The position numbers and the translations under genes were made by a program. 52,782 nt of DNA from a virus. Taxonomy: Duplodnaviria > Heunggongvirae > Uroviricota > Caudoviricetes. Positions 34,612-41,482 of this stretch are shown piece by piece. Position 1 is the first letter of the stretch. The number at the start of each line of letters is the position of its first letter. The notes beneath the pieces are model-generated. The model was not told the DNA's origin and made no database searches. It worked only from the letters and a program-made list of their open reading frames with translations. The DNA is taken from the IMG/VR virus record IMGVR_UViG_2718218129_000002; one strand, written 5' to 3'.

Positions 34612-34860
34612 TCAGAGGTTGCGGGGATTTCTCCCCGCTGGTCCTCTTACTCCCCAAGTTCGTAAGCTGTGAAGACAGCGACCTCCGTCTGGTCGGTTCG
34701 GATTCGTACCTCGCAGAGGTCTTTCCTCGTTACCAGTACCGTCACTATAACGGTTAAACAGATGACGATCAGGGTGATTAACATCGCCTTTTGCTGCTTC
34801 ATAGCCTGCTTCTCCTTGACCTTTTGGTCGGTAAGAGGCTAATCTACGTATGCAAAGCAT
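34612..34860 (-). CDS. mok-like overlapping reading frame
   Basis: 82 aa frame covering hok, as mok overlaps hok in characterised hok/sok loci. Confidence 0.4.
   Translation of the reverse strand: MLCIRRLASYRPKGQGEAGYEAAKGDVNHPDRHLFNRYSDGTGNEERPLRGTNPNRPDGGRCLHSLRTWGVRGPAGRNPRNL
34621..34638 (-). terminator. hok mRNA 3' hairpin
   Basis: GCGGGGA-ttt-CTCCCCGC perfect hairpin just after the hok stop; no clear U-run. Confidence 0.4.
34647..34802 (-). CDS. hok: Hok/Gef-family type I toxin
   Basis: Hand translation MKQQKAMLITLIVICLTVIVTVLVTRKDLCEVRIRTDQTEVAVFTAYELGE; Hok-like transmembrane toxin, 51 aa. Confidence 0.8.
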   Translation of the reverse strand: MKQQKAMLITLIVICLTVIVTVLVTRKDLCEVRIRTDQTEVAVFTAYELGE

Positions 34861-34925
34861 AGATGTGGCCTCAGATTAATGTTAAGCGTCTTGCCGGACG
34901 CGTAATGTTAACTGGGGCTTTTCTC
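34850..34925 (+). ncRNA. Sok-like antisense RNA (approximate position)
   Basis: TTGACC -35 and TAATCT -10 candidates on the plus strand opposite the mok start; boundaries not determined. Confidence 0.3.
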
Positions 34926-35298
34926 TATCTGCCTTTGGTGTTCATGCCCGAGGCAGACAGCCTCAAGCACCCGCAGCTATTCTACTTAACTCCCGTTACC
35001 TCGCCAATATGAAATCAATCAGAAAGGTGATCCATAAGAGCAATAGCAAGACCATAGATTGCCATTACAGCCGCTATAGTTTCTCTGATTTATTCTGTGG
35101 AAATGGGACACAACACCCCGTCACCACCACCACTTCCTTAAATGCGCTAAGTCAGTCACAAGCCAACACTTTAGTCCGCTTTGAGCGAAAAGCTGACAGG
35201 AGTTTAAATAATCAGTTAAGGCATTACAAAAAGCATGTGCTAATAGAGATAACCAGAGTCAATATATAATCTCTTAGCTCTATTTACACTTACGTACA

Positions 35299-36003
35299 TT
35301 ATTCTTGCTTTTTGGGAGGTCTTGGATATTTCGCAGGTAATTTTTCTGTAATCTTAAATATATCCTCATTTTTTAGTATTGTTCGCATTACAAAATTTTC
35401 TATAATTACCAAAAGCGATTTAAATTCAGTTTCGTTCGGTGCCCATGTCCTGTGTGCAGCTGAGTTGCCAGCTTCGGTTACAATTTTAAGTTGGCTCCTT
35501 TCTGTTTCCCCAATAAAACCTTCCTCTTTAAGAATGTCAACCTTCTGGCCTAATGTATATCCTGGATGAATATTTAGAACCTCAACTGTTCTGTCAAAAA
35601 TAGTTCTAAGTCCAATCGCCGCTAAAATGAATGATTTATTTTGAAATGCGATGTACATTTCGTTCATTATTACATACAGCTGACGATCTTTGTTTAATAT
35701 CTCACCAAACCAAGTTGGTCTAATCTCTTCTTGCTCTTGAGTGGGATATGTTGATATATGATAGTTATATACCATACAATCATAGCCTGACTCATCTCTT
35801 TCAATGTCGTAATCTTCACTGTGACGGGATTTAATATATGTAAATATTCCGTCGCACCCCATACACTCTAATAATTTGTATTCACTTTCAGCCCAAAAAT
35901 AGTTGCCCCCATCATCCTCACTCCATTCTCTTTTTTTATGGCCTATTATGTGGCAATTTTTTTCACCTTTACAATATGGACAAGGAGCTTTAATTTTTTC
36001 CAT
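35299..36003 (-). CDS. zinc-ribbon protein with HEPN-like (DUF4145-like) C-terminal domain, candidate defence protein
   Basis: 234 aa; CPYC...CMGC zinc ribbon; C-terminal helical domain with GNSAAHRTW; AT-rich gene; the domain family is uncertain. Confidence 0.55.
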   Translation of the reverse strand: MEKIKAPCPYCKGEKNCHIIGHKKREWSEDDGGNYFWAESEYKLLECMGCDGIFTYIKSRHSEDYDIERDESGYDCMVYNYHISTYPTQEQEEIRPTWFGEILNKDRQLYVIMNEMYIAFQNKSFILAAIGLRTIFDRTVEVLNIHPGYTLGQKVDILKEEGFIGETERSQLKIVTEAGNSAAHRTWAPNETEFKSLLVIIENFVMRTILKNEDIFKITEKLPAKYPRPPKKQE

Positions 36004-36717
36004 GGTAATTATTCTGCCATTTAAATTAAAATTGATATAACATATATGCTATATGATTTATAAATGATGAACTTACGGCTCACTTTACTACAATAATTTT
36101 CATATGAGTAGTGATATGCCTCTCATTTTCTTTGTCGTTGATTGATCTGCTCTACATTGATTAACACCGAATGGGAGTAACTCCCGCTTTTGGCAGAGTG
36201 CGAACAAGCTGACCAAACCTTAGGTCCGCAGTGAGCGAGGAGCGAGCATTGGCCTTATAAGGCATCGGAGCTGTTCTCCGGAGATCCTCTGAAAGCGAAC
36301 TGTTCGGTTAAGCAGGACGCTTACAAGGCAAGCTTAGCGTGTTGTCTTGTGATGGGTTGCTTAAACCTTTTGTGAAGGTATTTTTCTATCGAAAGATAAT
36401 TAACTGAGGTTGTTATGTCATACATTCGCGTCGAGAAAGATGACCTTCAGCATTAATCAGATTATTTCTGTGAAGAGGATATGGTTACAGTCTGTAGAAC
36501 TTAGGGGATTGTAGTCCAGTGTGGTTGTTAATGAGATGGCAGAAGTAGCTGCTGTTCGTACTGCGTTGCGAAATCTCATTAGAGAAAATCGGGTTGATCC
36601 TCTAACTGATTGAATATACATTCCTATTGCTCACGAGTTGGAATGAGCTGTGACTTTTTAGCTTTAAACTTAACTTTAAGACAATTTTATGATCACGTTA
36701 GGGTGTAAGAAGGATAT

Positions 36718-37944
36718 ATGAGCGGAGAAGTATTTCATAAAAGATTGTTTCCCGTTGGCCAGGGTGGATTTAGTTTAGGCGGACTGAGGGGAAGGGATGG
36801 TAGTTTGCTTTACAGTTATGTGTATGACTGCGGAAGTGACCAATTAAATGCGTTGCGTAGGGAGATGGATGTGGCTAAATCTCTCTTTAATATTGATGAG
36901 AAATATATTGATGTGGTATACATCTCTCATTTGGATTCAGACCATATAAATGGATTTGACCATTTATGTCAGCTTGTAGATAACAAAATACGCAAGGTTG
37001 TATTACCATACCTAGATATCCATGATAGCTATTACTTAATTGCATCGGAGCTATGCTCTAATTCTACGTCAGGTCTTTTTATGGAATTTCTCATTGATCC
37101 TGTCAAATGGATAAAATCAAGGTTGCCTGAGGCAGATATATCTTTGCTTTACCCCAGTGATATTGATGATAATTTTGACCCTCCTATATTTAATAGTGAA
37201 AACATTAAGGGTAGCGCTGTAAGCTTACCAATGAAAATATCTGACTCCAAAGGAGATGTTGAATGTAACCGTTGGTTGGTTAAAAGGATTGGGGAAAACA
37301 AAACTGATACACTAATGTCATTTATTTCTTGGATACCGCCCCGTTCACGTAAGAAAATTGAAATTTTCAGTCAGCAGTTAATAGAAAATGGTTTTACTGA
37401 GTTAAGTAAGAAAAAAATGCTTAAAATATTAACTAGCACGGGGGAAAGAAAGAAATTACGCGAGTGTTATTTAAAACTTGCTGGCGATCATAATGTAATA
37501 TCAATCAATCTCTTGATTATTAATAATCAAGAAGCTGAGATGAAAATTGTTAATGAGCCTTCTCGTGAGTGGTTTAGTTTTAGAAATAGTCGGGTTGAGC
37601 GACATTTTCTCTTTGATAGAGATAAAGGAATTAGATCTGTTTTATTAACAGGTGACTCAAAGCTTAATACATCATTGTATTATAATAAATGGGCTGAATT
37701 CTATTCAAAAGTGATTAAAACGGTAAGGGTGATGACATTACCTCATCATGGTTCGGAATTAAATTTCAATCAAAAAATAATTGCGGATTTTGATAATGTT
37801 TTGTTTATAGCTCAGTCGGATGGTCATTCACATGGACACCCATCACAATCAGTAATCGATGCTATAAATTCAAGTCATGGACATAGCGTTACTTTAGTTG
37901 ACAATAATGCTAAAAATTGGGTTGATATAAAATATATATTTTAA
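36718..37944 (+). CDS. metallo-beta-lactamase-fold protein
   Basis: 408 aa; ISHLDSDHINGF resembles the MBL HxHxDH motif; C-terminal LPHHGS as in ComEC-type MBL domains; AT-rich. Confidence 0.65.
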   Translation: MSGEVFHKRLFPVGQGGFSLGGLRGRDGSLLYSYVYDCGSDQLNALRREMDVAKSLFNIDEKYIDVVYISHLDSDHINGFDHLCQLVDNKIRKVVLPYLDIHDSYYLIASELCSNSTSGLFMEFLIDPVKWIKSRLPEADISLLYPSDIDDNFDPPIFNSENIKGSAVSLPMKISDSKGDVECNRWLVKRIGENKTDTLMSFISWIPPRSRKKIEIFSQQLIENGFTELSKKKMLKILTSTGERKKLRECYLKLAGDHNVISINLLIINNQEAEMKIVNEPSREWFSFRNSRVERHFLFDRDKGIRSVLLTGDSKLNTSLYYNKWAEFYSKVIKTVRVMTLPHHGSELNFNQKIIADFDNVLFIAQSDGHSHGHPSQSVIDAINSSHGHSVTLVDNNAKNWVDIKYIF

Positions 37945-38069
37945 ACATTAGTTGTATTAATAGCATTTAAATAAATTAAGTTTGTTGGTATGTTAAAAGT
38001 TTTTGCTAGATAACCAGGTCTTTTTTGACCGATGATACAGTCTTTGTTCCACGGTGACGTGTTCACACT

Positions 38070-38100
38070 CAAATCTCCTGCAATGTGGGAGATTTGAGTA
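38070..38100. terminator. bidirectional hairpin between convergent genes
   Basis: CTCAAATCTCC-tgcaatgtg-GGAGATTTGAG, an 11-bp perfect stem. Confidence 0.4.
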
Positions 38101-38184
38101 TGGTTGTCCCTGATGTGCGATAAGCGGACCTAACATTATTATGTTTTGAATAATAAGAGACAGTCAGTTGGCTGTAAGTCTGAC

Positions 38185-39078
38185 TTAGTTATCCAAAACA
38201 GCTTTTCTTTGTATTATTGTTCTAATAAATGCTGCTGATATATGCAACACGAATTCAGCATCGTATTCCAAGACAGAAGAAACCTTGTTGCTACCATGTC
38301 TTACTGCTGGCTCTGCATTTGTATAAGCGTAAAATTTCTCTATCACCGTTAAAAGCATAGGTGAGATAGTGTTTTCTTTTCTCATCAGTTTTAATACATC
38401 GCCCAAGGTTGAGGCTGAAGGATAATAAGTCCGACACATGCTTTCTATTGCACTTATTGATTCTTTTATGGAATTTTCTGGATCCTTATGCGCACCTAAT
38501 GCAAAAGCCCGGGCTTTCACATAGTGCCTCCTTGCAGGTTCAAACTGGTCTTGCAATAAGTTGTTAGTTTCATCGATTTTTTGTTCTAATTCATTTGGTA
38601 GTGGTGTTTCTAACCTACCAGCAGAATTCATTTTCCAGTCAATATTTCGAGATGCGAATAACTCGTTCAATTTCTGACGATATGATGTAAAAGTAATGTC
38701 TTCTAATGCCTTCTTACCCCAAGTATGGCCTCTTTCTACATCTCTTTTTCTTAATAGATCTCCGATAATCTCAACAGCATCATAAAATTGAAACCAACGC
38801 ATATGTTGCAAACGCGCTTTCAAAGCATCATAGCAGTACCATGAATCGAAATCCTCATGATCTGTTTCTTGACCATTCTCTGCGCAAAGTCGCTCGATCA
38901 AAGCCTTAATACCCAACGGCTTGTTCTCATCATTCGTAATGCGGCTATCACCATCAATGTACAAAAAATTATCGAGGACAGTTACAAAAAATAAAGAGCG
39001 AAGCCACTCTGGAGCATCTTCCCGTATCGGCTTTTTATTATACTCAGGATCAAAACCATGTCTGTACGAGAACTTCAT
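38185..39078 (-). CDS. hypothetical protein, candidate defence-associated
   Basis: 297 aa from MKFSYRHGFDPEYNKK... with GGGAG Shine-Dalgarno; AT-rich; no motif recognised with confidence. Confidence 0.55.
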   Translation of the reverse strand: MKFSYRHGFDPEYNKKPIREDAPEWLRSLFFVTVLDNFLYIDGDSRITNDENKPLGIKALIERLCAENGQETDHEDFDSWYCYDALKARLQHMRWFQFYDAVEIIGDLLRKRDVERGHTWGKKALEDITFTSYRQKLNELFASRNIDWKMNSAGRLETPLPNELEQKIDETNNLLQDQFEPARRHYVKARAFALGAHKDPENSIKESISAIESMCRTYYPSASTLGDVLKLMRKENTISPMLLTVIEKFYAYTNAEPAVRHGSNKVSSVLEYDAEFVLHISAAFIRTIIQRKAVLDN

Positions 39079-39488
39079 CCCACATCTCCCATTCAACTGT
39101 ATGAATATTAGGTAATTATACAACCAACACAAATCCCTTTGCGAATACAAAAAAATCAAAAAATCACAACAAATTTAAGAACTGATCGCTTATTTCTCTA
39201 TGGATGTCCGCTTCTGGCACGAAGCGGACAAGTTACCGTAGCTGAAGGTCACTAATACTGGGGGCAGGTCAGTTCGCGTTTGTTCTCATAACGGAGTAAG
39301 ACGCTAATGGTATTAAGGTGTATTAATGATCAATGTAGATCAACGATTATTGGCGTTTAACGCTCAGATGAGAACGTTCACCGATTCTGCACGAACAAAT
39401 TCAGAATGGGGGGATTTGATATCCCCCTGGTAGATGCCTTGGTTAATGTTTATAGGTCAATTGAACTCAGAGCATCATTCTTGCCGCA

Positions 39489-40850
39489 TTAGAGATGGTC
39501 AAAAATAGACCCTTTGCGTGGAATAAGGATCTTCTCATAAAGCTTTGTTGCATAGTCATCAGTCATCCCTGAAACATAGTCGCAAATGACTCGCATACCA
39601 GCCTTCTCGTCCAAGCTAGTCTGCCGCTCGTAAATTTCCCTCGTTGATGCCGGTAGAAACCGACACGGATCGTTAGCCAGCACACCGAAAAGCTCAACAA
39701 TCAACTTTTGTCCCTTGAATTCAAGCTGCTGTACATTTTCATGCTTAATTACTTTATTTTTGACCAGTTTGAAAATTTTCAACCGTAGTGCTTCGACCGC
39801 TTCCGGAAGGACCGCATTATATTTGAGCATGCCACATTCGAATGCTGGATTCTTTGTAATAAGCTCAACGCTTGTAATCATCAGGTGAACCAGCATCCCG
39901 ATGCACTCTTTTCTCTTGTAACTTTCACCAAAAAGGCTATCCGCGACAGATTCACATGTTGCGGAAAATGTTTCTCCATGGCAGTTAGTAAATAGGGTTT
40001 CATATTCACTGAAATGCTCCATCCACATTTCTCGTGTCACCATTCCGAGAGAAATAGCATCCTCCAAATCGTGCAGCGAATACGAAATTTCATCGGCAAG
40101 ATCCATGATGGTTGTATCGAGAGCTTTATAAGAAGCTTTTTTATGATCGGATTTAGTTTGACCATCTTCAACGGAAGTAAAAAGCCTCCGATCCTGTTCA
40201 GTAAATGGTGAAAGAGCAAATTCTACAACATCGCATTCTGAATCTAGATAGCATTTTGGAGGTTTAAAATCAGATGACTTAAAGAGCCAGTTCGGCGATC
40301 CGATAGTGGCCGGGATTCTGTCTTTTGTAACCACTAGATCCGAGTATTTAACCGGATATTTCAGTATGCCTAGCAGAAGTCTGCGTGTAGGATCGAGTCC
40401 GTGTTCAACGGTATACTTATCTAGTTTCGAGAGAATGCGAAGTGTCTGACCGTTTCCTTCAAAACCACCGTAATCCTGCATACAGTAGTTAAGAGCTACC
40501 TCACCGCCGTGACCAAATGGAGGATGTCCAATATCATGTGCGAGACATACTGCCTGCATAAGATCGTTATCTGGTAAAAATTGCTCTTGCTCTTTACCTT
40601 TATATTTTATTTTCAGCTTAGCAAGAAGACCTGAACCGATTTGTGCGACTTCCATAGAATGAGTCAGTCGTGTGCGGTAGAAATCACTTTCACCCAGACC
40701 AAGAACCTGTGTTTTGGATTGCAATCGTCTGAAAGCAGACGAGTGAATCAGTCGAGAAAGGTCGTGCTGAGCTTCAGATCGAATCTCCTCCACACGATGA
40801 CTATTGGTGCCTCGTCTCTTATCCCAGACGTTTATTTCACTCCGAGTCAT
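39489..40850 (-). CDS. dGTP triphosphohydrolase (HD domain, Dgt family), likely anti-phage dGTPase
   Basis: RTRLTHSMEVAQIG and HDIGHPPFGHGGE HD-domain motifs; start set at MTRSEINVW by GAGGAA Shine-Dalgarno; about 453 aa. Confidence 0.8.
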   Translation of the reverse strand: MTRSEINVWDKRRGTNSHRVEEIRSEAQHDLSRLIHSSAFRRLQSKTQVLGLGESDFYRTRLTHSMEVAQIGSGLLAKLKIKYKGKEQEQFLPDNDLMQAVCLAHDIGHPPFGHGGEVALNYCMQDYGGFEGNGQTLRILSKLDKYTVEHGLDPTRRLLLGILKYPVKYSDLVVTKDRIPATIGSPNWLFKSSDFKPPKCYLDSECDVVEFALSPFTEQDRRLFTSVEDGQTKSDHKKASYKALDTTIMDLADEISYSLHDLEDAISLGMVTREMWMEHFSEYETLFTNCHGETFSATCESVADSLFGESYKRKECIGMLVHLMITSVELITKNPAFECGMLKYNAVLPEAVEALRLKIFKLVKNKVIKHENVQQLEFKGQKLIVELFGVLANDPCRFLPASTREIYERQTSLDEKAGMRVICDYVSGMTDDYATKLYEKILIPRKGSIFDHL

Positions 40851-41059
40851 ATTATTCCTCATTTTTACTTTGTACACTGCGGCATTCTAACGTAACTAAA
40901 TTATCAAAATAACCTATTTATTTCTGACCTAATCTTCAATAATCAATGTTGTGTGAACTTAGTTAGGCCCGCCCCTGGCACAAAACAGACAACCACGCTA
41001 GCCGTATCCTGTGCCATGAAACTGTCAATTCACATATGAATTAATGGTCTTTAATCTCG

Positions 41060-41482
41060 TCACTTCAATAAATACCGAACATTTCCCTGATAGAATGCTA
41101 ATACACGCTGCATAACTTCACTCTTCCGGCACTCACGGCAAATTATGTTCAGACGCCTGTCGTAGCGACGTATTTCTCCGTCTGGTAATGACCAAATAAG
41201 GTCCAGATCAACCACAACTGGTTTCTTCACCTTTGCCCTCGATAGTTTTTTGCGGGCGTTTTGCCAGTCTTGACGTGCCTGCTCAGACGGAAATAACCCA
41301 TAGCCAGAGTTGTATACATCACCATTCGCAACCAACTCCCTAGCAAGAGCGCTTATCAGATATCTTGTCGCCCCCGTTTTAGCTTCCAGTTGTCGTAACG
41401 TCTCTCGCCCGCTCTGGCGTACAAGATCAACAATCTGCCCTTTAATTTTTTCTCGCTCTTCCTGTGTAAATACTTTTGCCAT
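41060..41482 (-). CDS. hypothetical phage protein
   Basis: 140 aa from MAKVFTQEEREKIKG... with GGGGAGGG Shine-Dalgarno; C-terminal CRECRK. Confidence 0.5.
   Translation of the reverse strand: MAKVFTQEEREKIKGQIVDLVRQSGRETLRQLEAKTGATRYLISALARELVANGDVYNSGYGLFPSEQARQDWQNARKKLSRAKVKKPVVVDLDLIWSLPDGEIRRYDRRLNIICRECRKSEVMQRVLAFYQGNVRYLLK

Follow-up and report, generated by a model that had tools for sequence, protein, structure and literature searches.

The DNA analyzed here (the window, 52,782 nucleotides in its whole length; IMG/VR virus record IMGVR_UViG_2718218129_000002, Caudoviricetes) is a Rac prophage of Escherichia coli that carries recE, recT, racC, kilR, ydaV and trkG. Between the DUF977 gene and hok (window ~34650-41060) lies an AT-rich island (38.3% GC) of four genes, which encode an anti-phage dGTPase, a 297-aa protein, an MBL-fold protein and a zinc-ribbon/DUF4145 protein. 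We analyzed the 297-aa gene, a minus-strand open reading frame (ORF) at 38185-39078 that runs from ATG at 39076-39078 to TAA at 38185-38187 (Table 1). The RefSeq entry for an identical gene, WP_021554375.1, is labelled 'hypothetical protein'. A TTG-initiated 324-aa version of the ORF was rejected because the MKFS start is common to all homologues. An earlier note, made from the sequence alone, had described an AT-rich gene with a good Shine-Dalgarno sequence, and both features were confirmed (38.1% GC in the gene, 46.7% in the window; GGGAG 7 nt from the ATG). The dN/dS of the gene was 0.145 against the Pseudescherichia orthologue and 0.133 against the Dickeya orthologue, indicating a protein-coding gene that is under purifying selection.

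Table 1. Features of the 297-aa gene, its cassette and its neighbors (positions in the window)
Feature	Position	Strand	Basis or remark
Coding sequence, 297 aa, AbiJ-NTD4 / PADLOC PDC-S32 family protein	38185..39078	-	family matches, RefSeq WP_021554375.1, dN/dS 0.13-0.15
N-terminal AbiJ_NTD4 domain, residues 1-176 (helical bundle and small beta element); presumed sensor/regulatory	38551..39078	-	
C-terminal HEPN-fold domain (predicted), residues 177-297 and stop	38185..38550	-	
R260-H261 codons (AGA CAT), near-invariant Arg-His dyad in helix-3/helix-4 loop; predicted catalytic centre	38296-38301	-	
E212-S-M-C-R216 codons, Ex3[KR]-type motif in HEPN helix 2	38431-38445	-	
Shine-Dalgarno sequence GGGAG	39086-39090	-	7 nt 5' of ATG; identical in three genera
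Perfect -10 hexamer TATAAT, candidate own promoter without a good -35	39115-39120	-	kept in E. coli, Pseudescherichia and Dickeya
Long AU-rich hairpin that includes the stop codon and has no U-tract	38142-38200	-	RNA folding
Horizontally shared single-gene cassette	38113..39230	-	blastn limits
24-nt palindromic hairpin GTCCGCTTC-GTGCCA-GAAGCGGAC (GTCYGCTTYGTGCCAGAAGCRGWC), 5' edge of cassette	39206-39229	-	unique in window
Anti-phage dGTPase	39489-40877	-	NCBIfam, 560 bits
MBL-fold protein, 408 aa, divergently transcribed	36718-37944	+	
234-aa protein, N-terminal CxxC zinc-ribbon and DUF4145	35299-36003	-	DUF4145, E=3.2e-11

The earlier note had found no motif that it could assign to the protein and had suggested a remote-homology search, which identified its family. 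The PADLOC PDC-S32 profile PDLC04997 matched residues 1-291 at profile positions 7-280 of 285, that is, over the full length (E=1.6e-33), and a second PDC-S32 profile, PDLC04996, matched with E=2.7e-26. The match to Pfam AbiJ_NTD4 (PF18863) was marginal, with 34.4 bits against a gathering cut-off of 34 (residues 1-170 on profile positions 1-148 of 152). Further, this domain was matched by all 31 aligned homologues (best 5e-18), and the NCBI name of many homologues is 'AbiJ-NTD4 domain-containing protein'. The 297-aa protein is a member of the AbiJ-NTD4 / PDC-S32 family, a known kind of computational candidate. PDC stands for 'phage defence candidates', which were drawn from genes lying inside BREX, DISARM and type I restriction-modification (RM) loci (bioRxiv 10.1101/2024.01.29.577857), and the family is a guilt-by-embedding prediction. 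The protein resembles the family in its full-length match to the hidden Markov model (HMM), NTD4, length, architecture and single-gene organization, and there was no structural difference. The identity of 128 close homologues ranged from 86% (Dickeya) to ~40% (cyanobacteria, Chloroflexota). An exhaustive profile search yielded 4874 representatives at 50% identity, 3586 of them at E<=1e-10; nearly all were 280-300 aa long, matched end to end and shared the same architecture, and hits that seemed to cover the C-terminal part only also carried NTD4. No NCBIfam model matched the 297-aa protein, the only hit in PHROGs was marginal (E=0.0096), and a search of PDB sequences with the family profile gave zero hits at E<=10.

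Structure prediction, which the earlier note had also suggested, gave a two-domain AlphaFold2 model (pLDDT 88.9, pTM 0.80) that was built with the 31-sequence alignment. In this model, helices at residues 177-194 and 200-218 are followed by an insert, a helix at 240-255, a loop and a helix at 271-296. The C-terminal domain of the model has the HEPN fold, in which four helices form an up-down bundle and an insert separates helices 2 and 3. HEPN domains have a conserved acidic residue in helix 2, typically within an Ex3[KR] motif (PMC3710099), and in this family E212 was found in 380 of 383 members, with R or K at position 216 in 283 of 383. R260 was kept in 374 of 378 members and H261 in 376 of 377. 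Further, R260, H261, E212, E206 and H185 were each kept in at least 97% of 387 sequences.

The Arg-His dyad appears to stand where the active site of HEPN domains normally lies. In SadR, an RNase of Staphylococcus aureus with an Abi_C domain, R225, N226 and H232 of the sequence RNEYGDAH are needed for RNase activity and defence (PMC13590631). The family motif [SNC][DA]E-x-[GA][VI]RH aligns with RNEYGDAH at E, G and H, and we therefore read H261 as the canonical histidine, with the arginine relocated next to it, an inference that draws on the motif alignment and secondary structure. In the other possible register, R260 would be the canonical arginine and H261 the polar residue, with the histidine lost. 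The canonical motif is not intact under either register, and an arginine anywhere at 253-256 was present in only six of 387 family members. The shift of the arginine points to a different geometry of the active site or to a different substrate.

AbiJ (Abi-859) of Lactococcus lactis and SadR are likewise single proteins of ~270-300 aa with a variable N-terminal part and a C-terminal HEPN domain, and NTD4 was first defined as an AbiJ-associated N-terminal domain (PMC3710099). A tblastn search of plasmids with the 297-aa protein gave no lactococcal hit, so that no resemblance to proteins of lactococcal plasmids was found at the level of BLAST. Around the motif the protein can be aligned with SadR, as described above, but it differs from AbiJ and the Abi_C RNases in that it has no Abi_C match, the canonical arginine and the next polar residue are replaced in its family (N254, A/D255) and an invariant arginine stands beside the histidine. 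In addition, most Abi_C proteins have been reported with no N-terminal domain or with NTD3, whereas the 297-aa protein has NTD4. Precomputed Abi_C hits were only 'faint' ones, in four of 120 homologues, and a homologue search seeded with a divergent phage C-terminal protein retrieved only NTD4-family proteins, none with PF14355. Membership in Abi_C by HMM was rejected, as no hit reached 24 bits among the 41 family members scanned. In some HEPN families, a relocated basic residue or histidine has been proposed to rebuild the site (PMC3710099). Unlike the non-canonical families AbiV, AF0298-like HEPN-T, Parep1/8 and c2405 (PMC3710099), the 297-aa family retains the histidine and has the arginine immediately before it, an arrangement that is not described in that survey.

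When the locus was compared with other genera by blastn, Pseudescherichia vulneris matched with 95.4% identity over 38113-39230 and Dickeya with 83.6% identity over 38129-39197, and neither matched beyond these limits. The common unit comprises the gene, ~70 bp downstream and ~150 bp upstream, and the conserved upstream part contains the Shine-Dalgarno sequence and TATAAT, the latter preceded by an invariant stretch. The 3' junction of the Dickeya homology falls after GTTAGG. By these comparisons, the 297-aa gene is an autonomous, horizontally mobile single-gene cassette of 1.1 kb. In P. vulneris, two direct copies of the 24-nt palindrome flank the gene (L019 9857-9880 and 10990-11013) with a compensatory change in the stem; the palindrome may mark a place of recombination or insertion, or act as an insulator hairpin. 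The idea of an integron cassette was dropped, as no inverse core or 5' site was found by eye and Rac is not an integron.

The earlier note had also placed a terminator hairpin after the stop codon. The RNA 3' of the stop was indeed strongly structured (folding z = -6.3), and a second hairpin with a 15-bp stem lies at 38064-38102; however, it likewise has no U-tract, and a scan for intrinsic terminators, itself at chance level, called none 3' of the gene. On the 3' side of the cassette, a 99-bp element (38017-38115) contains this second hairpin (arms 38064-38078 and 38088-38102). The element recurs with 94% identity in E. coli 1303 (L002 9293-9391), where it lies beside an integrase fragment on the far side of that strain's dGTPase, and it resembles a short repeat or mobile element.

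Copies of the gene occur in diverse genomic contexts. The Dickeya copy lies on an integrative and conjugative element (ICE) rich in toxin-antitoxin genes and the Klebsiella copy in a small islet. Pseudomonas lundensis copies adjoin Hachiman, Shedu and Mrr or lie in an island that has an integrase and a type ISP RM enzyme; the Pseudoalteromonas copy adjoins SIR2-TPR, and that of Pseudomonas aeruginosa is next to the portal gene where a P2-like prophage ends. Plasmid copies were found in Rahnella, Yersinia, Enterobacter, Pantoea, Piscirickettsia and Leptospira. The P. vulneris copy (97% identical) stands alone among housekeeping genes. Among 146 proximal ORFs of 30 diverse loci, the commonest neighbor families were phage integrase (seven) and resolvase (three); no other partner recurred, and Hachiman, IetS, type II RM, BrxH-like and other PDC hits were scattered. 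As expected of the single-gene PDC-S32 type, the common cassette holds only the 297-aa gene and no obligatory partner recurs.

A truncated copy was found in a phage. gp056 of the lytic T7-like Rhizobium phage RHEph01 (165 aa; JX483873 42494-42991; L016:454-951) shares 88% identity with the last 165 residues of 284-aa Rhizobium AbiJ-NTD4 proteins (P0268 and P0269). Rhizobium is the host genus of this phage, and the copy shows that a gene has recently passed between phage and host. gp056 retains the equivalents of H185, E206, E212 and the R-H pair and has no N-terminal bundle. It may be a captured decoy, dominant-negative or anti-defence gene, and it lends indirect support to a role of the family in phage-host conflict. 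C-terminal-only versions were also observed in Rhizobium chromosomes (P0270, P0280 and P0301).

With respect to the neighboring genes, the 408-aa MBL-fold protein resembled the MBL components of Lamassu (LmuA), Avs1a and DRT-associated MBL proteins only weakly and in its C-terminal part (E 1e-12 to 1e-6); its gene is an unassigned candidate for defence. The 234-aa protein matched PHROG 1305 (E=9.6e-30) and had no PADLOC hit; DUF4145 is classed as a HEPN family (PMC3710099), and its gene is a second HEPN-type cargo gene of the island. In strain T-HYM1, the same Rac slot (L042) holds an AAA ATPase and a DUF4435 protein instead of the four genes. Thus, this slot of Rac-like prophages, bounded by hok and the DUF977 gene, is a hotspot whose cargo varies. 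In E. coli 1303, a 97%-identical dGTPase is located in another island, beside type I RM and DarTG genes with a frameshifted darT (L002 437-8581), which shows that the dGTPase itself is a mobile single-gene module.

We lean towards the reading that the 297-aa protein is an autonomous, prophage-carried, single-protein effector of the abortive-infection type, in which NTD4 restrains a HEPN domain that cleaves RNA after phage sensing. The analysis established the family, the C-terminal HEPN fold, the near-invariant H185/E206/E212/R260-H261 set, the autonomy of the cassette and the independence from the dGTPase; we infer that the gene is expressed from a promoter of its own, that the N-terminal domain is the sensor, that the protein is an RNase and that it serves in defence at all. 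In a lysogen, the protein would be made from its own promoter and held inactive by the N-terminal NTD4. A component of an incoming phage would engage NTD4, which would relieve the inhibition or drive oligomerization; the activated HEPN domains would then cut RNA without a metal ion, translation would halt and the infection would be aborted. This scheme has been proposed for AbiJ-type proteins (PMC3710099) and demonstrated for SadR (PMC13590631) and for HepS of the Salmonella prophage Gifsy-1 (PMC13043305). We counted the context of conflict in favor of defence, namely the cargo position in the Rac slot, the defence and integrase neighbors, the phage copy and the derivation of PDC. Several observations weigh against this reading. 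The canonical Rx4-6H motif (R-polar-x(3-5)-H) is absent, with N, S or C at the arginine-equivalent position 254. Abi_C (PF14355; cut-off 24 bits) gave no hit with the 297-aa protein at E<=1 and none with the 31 aligned homologues at E<=0.1, and one of ten further homologues scored 14.7 bits, below the cut-off. The candidate promoter has no recognizable -35, and a scan for consensus sigma-70 promoters, which performed at chance level, did not call the conserved TATAAT because its -35 is poor. Further, several homologues lie among housekeeping genes without a defence island. The searched literature contained no mention of PDC-S32 and no phage-defence test of any family member; AbiJ-NTD4 was mentioned in two papers, in both on bioinformatic grounds only.

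The earlier note had raised the possibility that the 297-aa protein assists or regulates the dGTPase encoded upstream, which would make the two genes one system. The genes are adjacent and, as it had stated, have the same orientation, both being on the minus strand; they also occur together in all nine of the 5426 complete E. coli genomes in which the 297-aa gene is intact. However, these nine copies share at least 99.8% identity and all lie in this island, so their co-occurrence is that of one clonal island. The dGTPase allele was present in 16 E. coli genomes, and six of these lack the 297-aa gene and carry a 97.5%-identical dGTPase in a type I RM/DarTG island. When fetched loci outside E. 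coli were searched by tblastn, none of the 37 had a homologue of the dGTPase, MBL or DUF4145 protein within 10 kb of the 297-aa gene. In addition, cassette homology ends at 39230 and the dGTPase block common to E. coli 1303 begins at 39271; the gap between the genes, given as about 330 bp in the earlier note, measured 410 bp (dGTPase stop at 39489) and holds the hairpin and TATAAT. Partnership with the dGTPase was rejected on the basis of the fetched loci and the E. coli genome counts. The 297-aa gene is independent of the neighboring dGTPase, and we regard an accessory role as very unlikely. In another dGTPase genome, that of E. coli 1919D3 (L018 4773-6133), the 297-aa gene is truncated by an IS3-associated deletion; IS3 sits at the deletion, which spans rrrD to codon 44 of the gene, and the dGTPase is intact. 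We rejected this copy as evidence of modularity, as it is a deletion artefact. The other proposal of the note, a separate single-gene system, is supported by the single-gene PDC-S32 match, the 1.1-kb cassette and the absence of a conserved neighbor in 30 loci.

Other explanations concern the function of the protein. One is a type III toxin-antitoxin system resembling AbiV or ToxIN, with a repeat-RNA antitoxin upstream; a hairpin does lie upstream of the gene, and AbiV, another HEPN Abi protein, has been reported as a type III toxin (PMC13064643). Such systems have a tandem-repeat antitoxin RNA upstream, whereas no tandem repeats beyond trivial runs of 8-10 nt were found in 37900-39600, a search of the gene flanks in Rfam (small RNA, riboswitch, type III toxin-antitoxin RNA) gave no match, and only ~150 bp upstream are conserved between genera; this explanation is extremely unlikely. 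The gene might instead be a toxin or addiction module, or benefit the prophage by stabilizing its element through post-segregational killing or prophage competition rather than by general defence. This would fit the copies on an ICE, on plasmids, in prophages and beside integrases, and the wealth of toxin-antitoxin genes at the Dickeya ICE locus. Nevertheless, no cognate antitoxin gene was found, the 1.1-kb cassette has no space for one, the same searches for repeat RNA and Rfam families speak against an RNA antitoxin, and copies also occur in plain chromosomal contexts, so that we consider a role of this kind unlikely. Somewhat less easily set aside, though still doubtful, is a non-catalytic HEPN domain, like those of MtlR, sacsin and the nucleotidyltransferase-associated kind, through which the protein would regulate, scaffold or act as a decoy by binding a nucleotide, a nucleic acid or another protein; a role in conflict would still be possible in this case. 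Against this, the Arg-His pair is kept in ~99% of members, and E206, E212 and H185 are kept across phyla, which is typical of a catalytic constellation. Further, the rebuilt sites proposed in other HEPN families offer a precedent, and the motif aligns with the essential histidine of SadR.

We thus retain the RNA-cleaving, NTD4-restrained effector as our explanation of the 297-aa gene. A wider possibility, to which we give little credence at present, is that PDC-S32 proteins are widespread single-protein immune effectors in which an N-terminal bundle resembling a death fold recognizes a phage product, assembles and activates an atypical HEPN nuclease with an arginine next to the histidine, and that phages counter them with sensor-less dominant-negative decoys; the last part is suggested by gp056 of phage RHEph01. 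The truncated phage copy is in this respect a ready hypothesis for counter-defence. For the Rac prophage, our results mean that four adjacent cargo genes of a hotspot are annotated as independent modules and not as one system. The family is a very large one, with no fewer than 4874 clusters at 50% identity; it extends over Proteobacteria, Cyanobacteria, Acidobacteriota, Chloroflexota, Actinomycetota, Saccharibacteria, plasmids and phage contigs, and its listing as a candidate is purely computational. Its HEPN site, in which the arginine is shifted throughout the family, and the copy captured by a phage merit specialist attention. The compact 1.1-kb E. coli cassette, with its native upstream region and a tractable host, is a convenient entry point, through which one could address whether the family defends against phages, what triggers it and whether an Arg-His dyad can serve in place of Rx4-6H.
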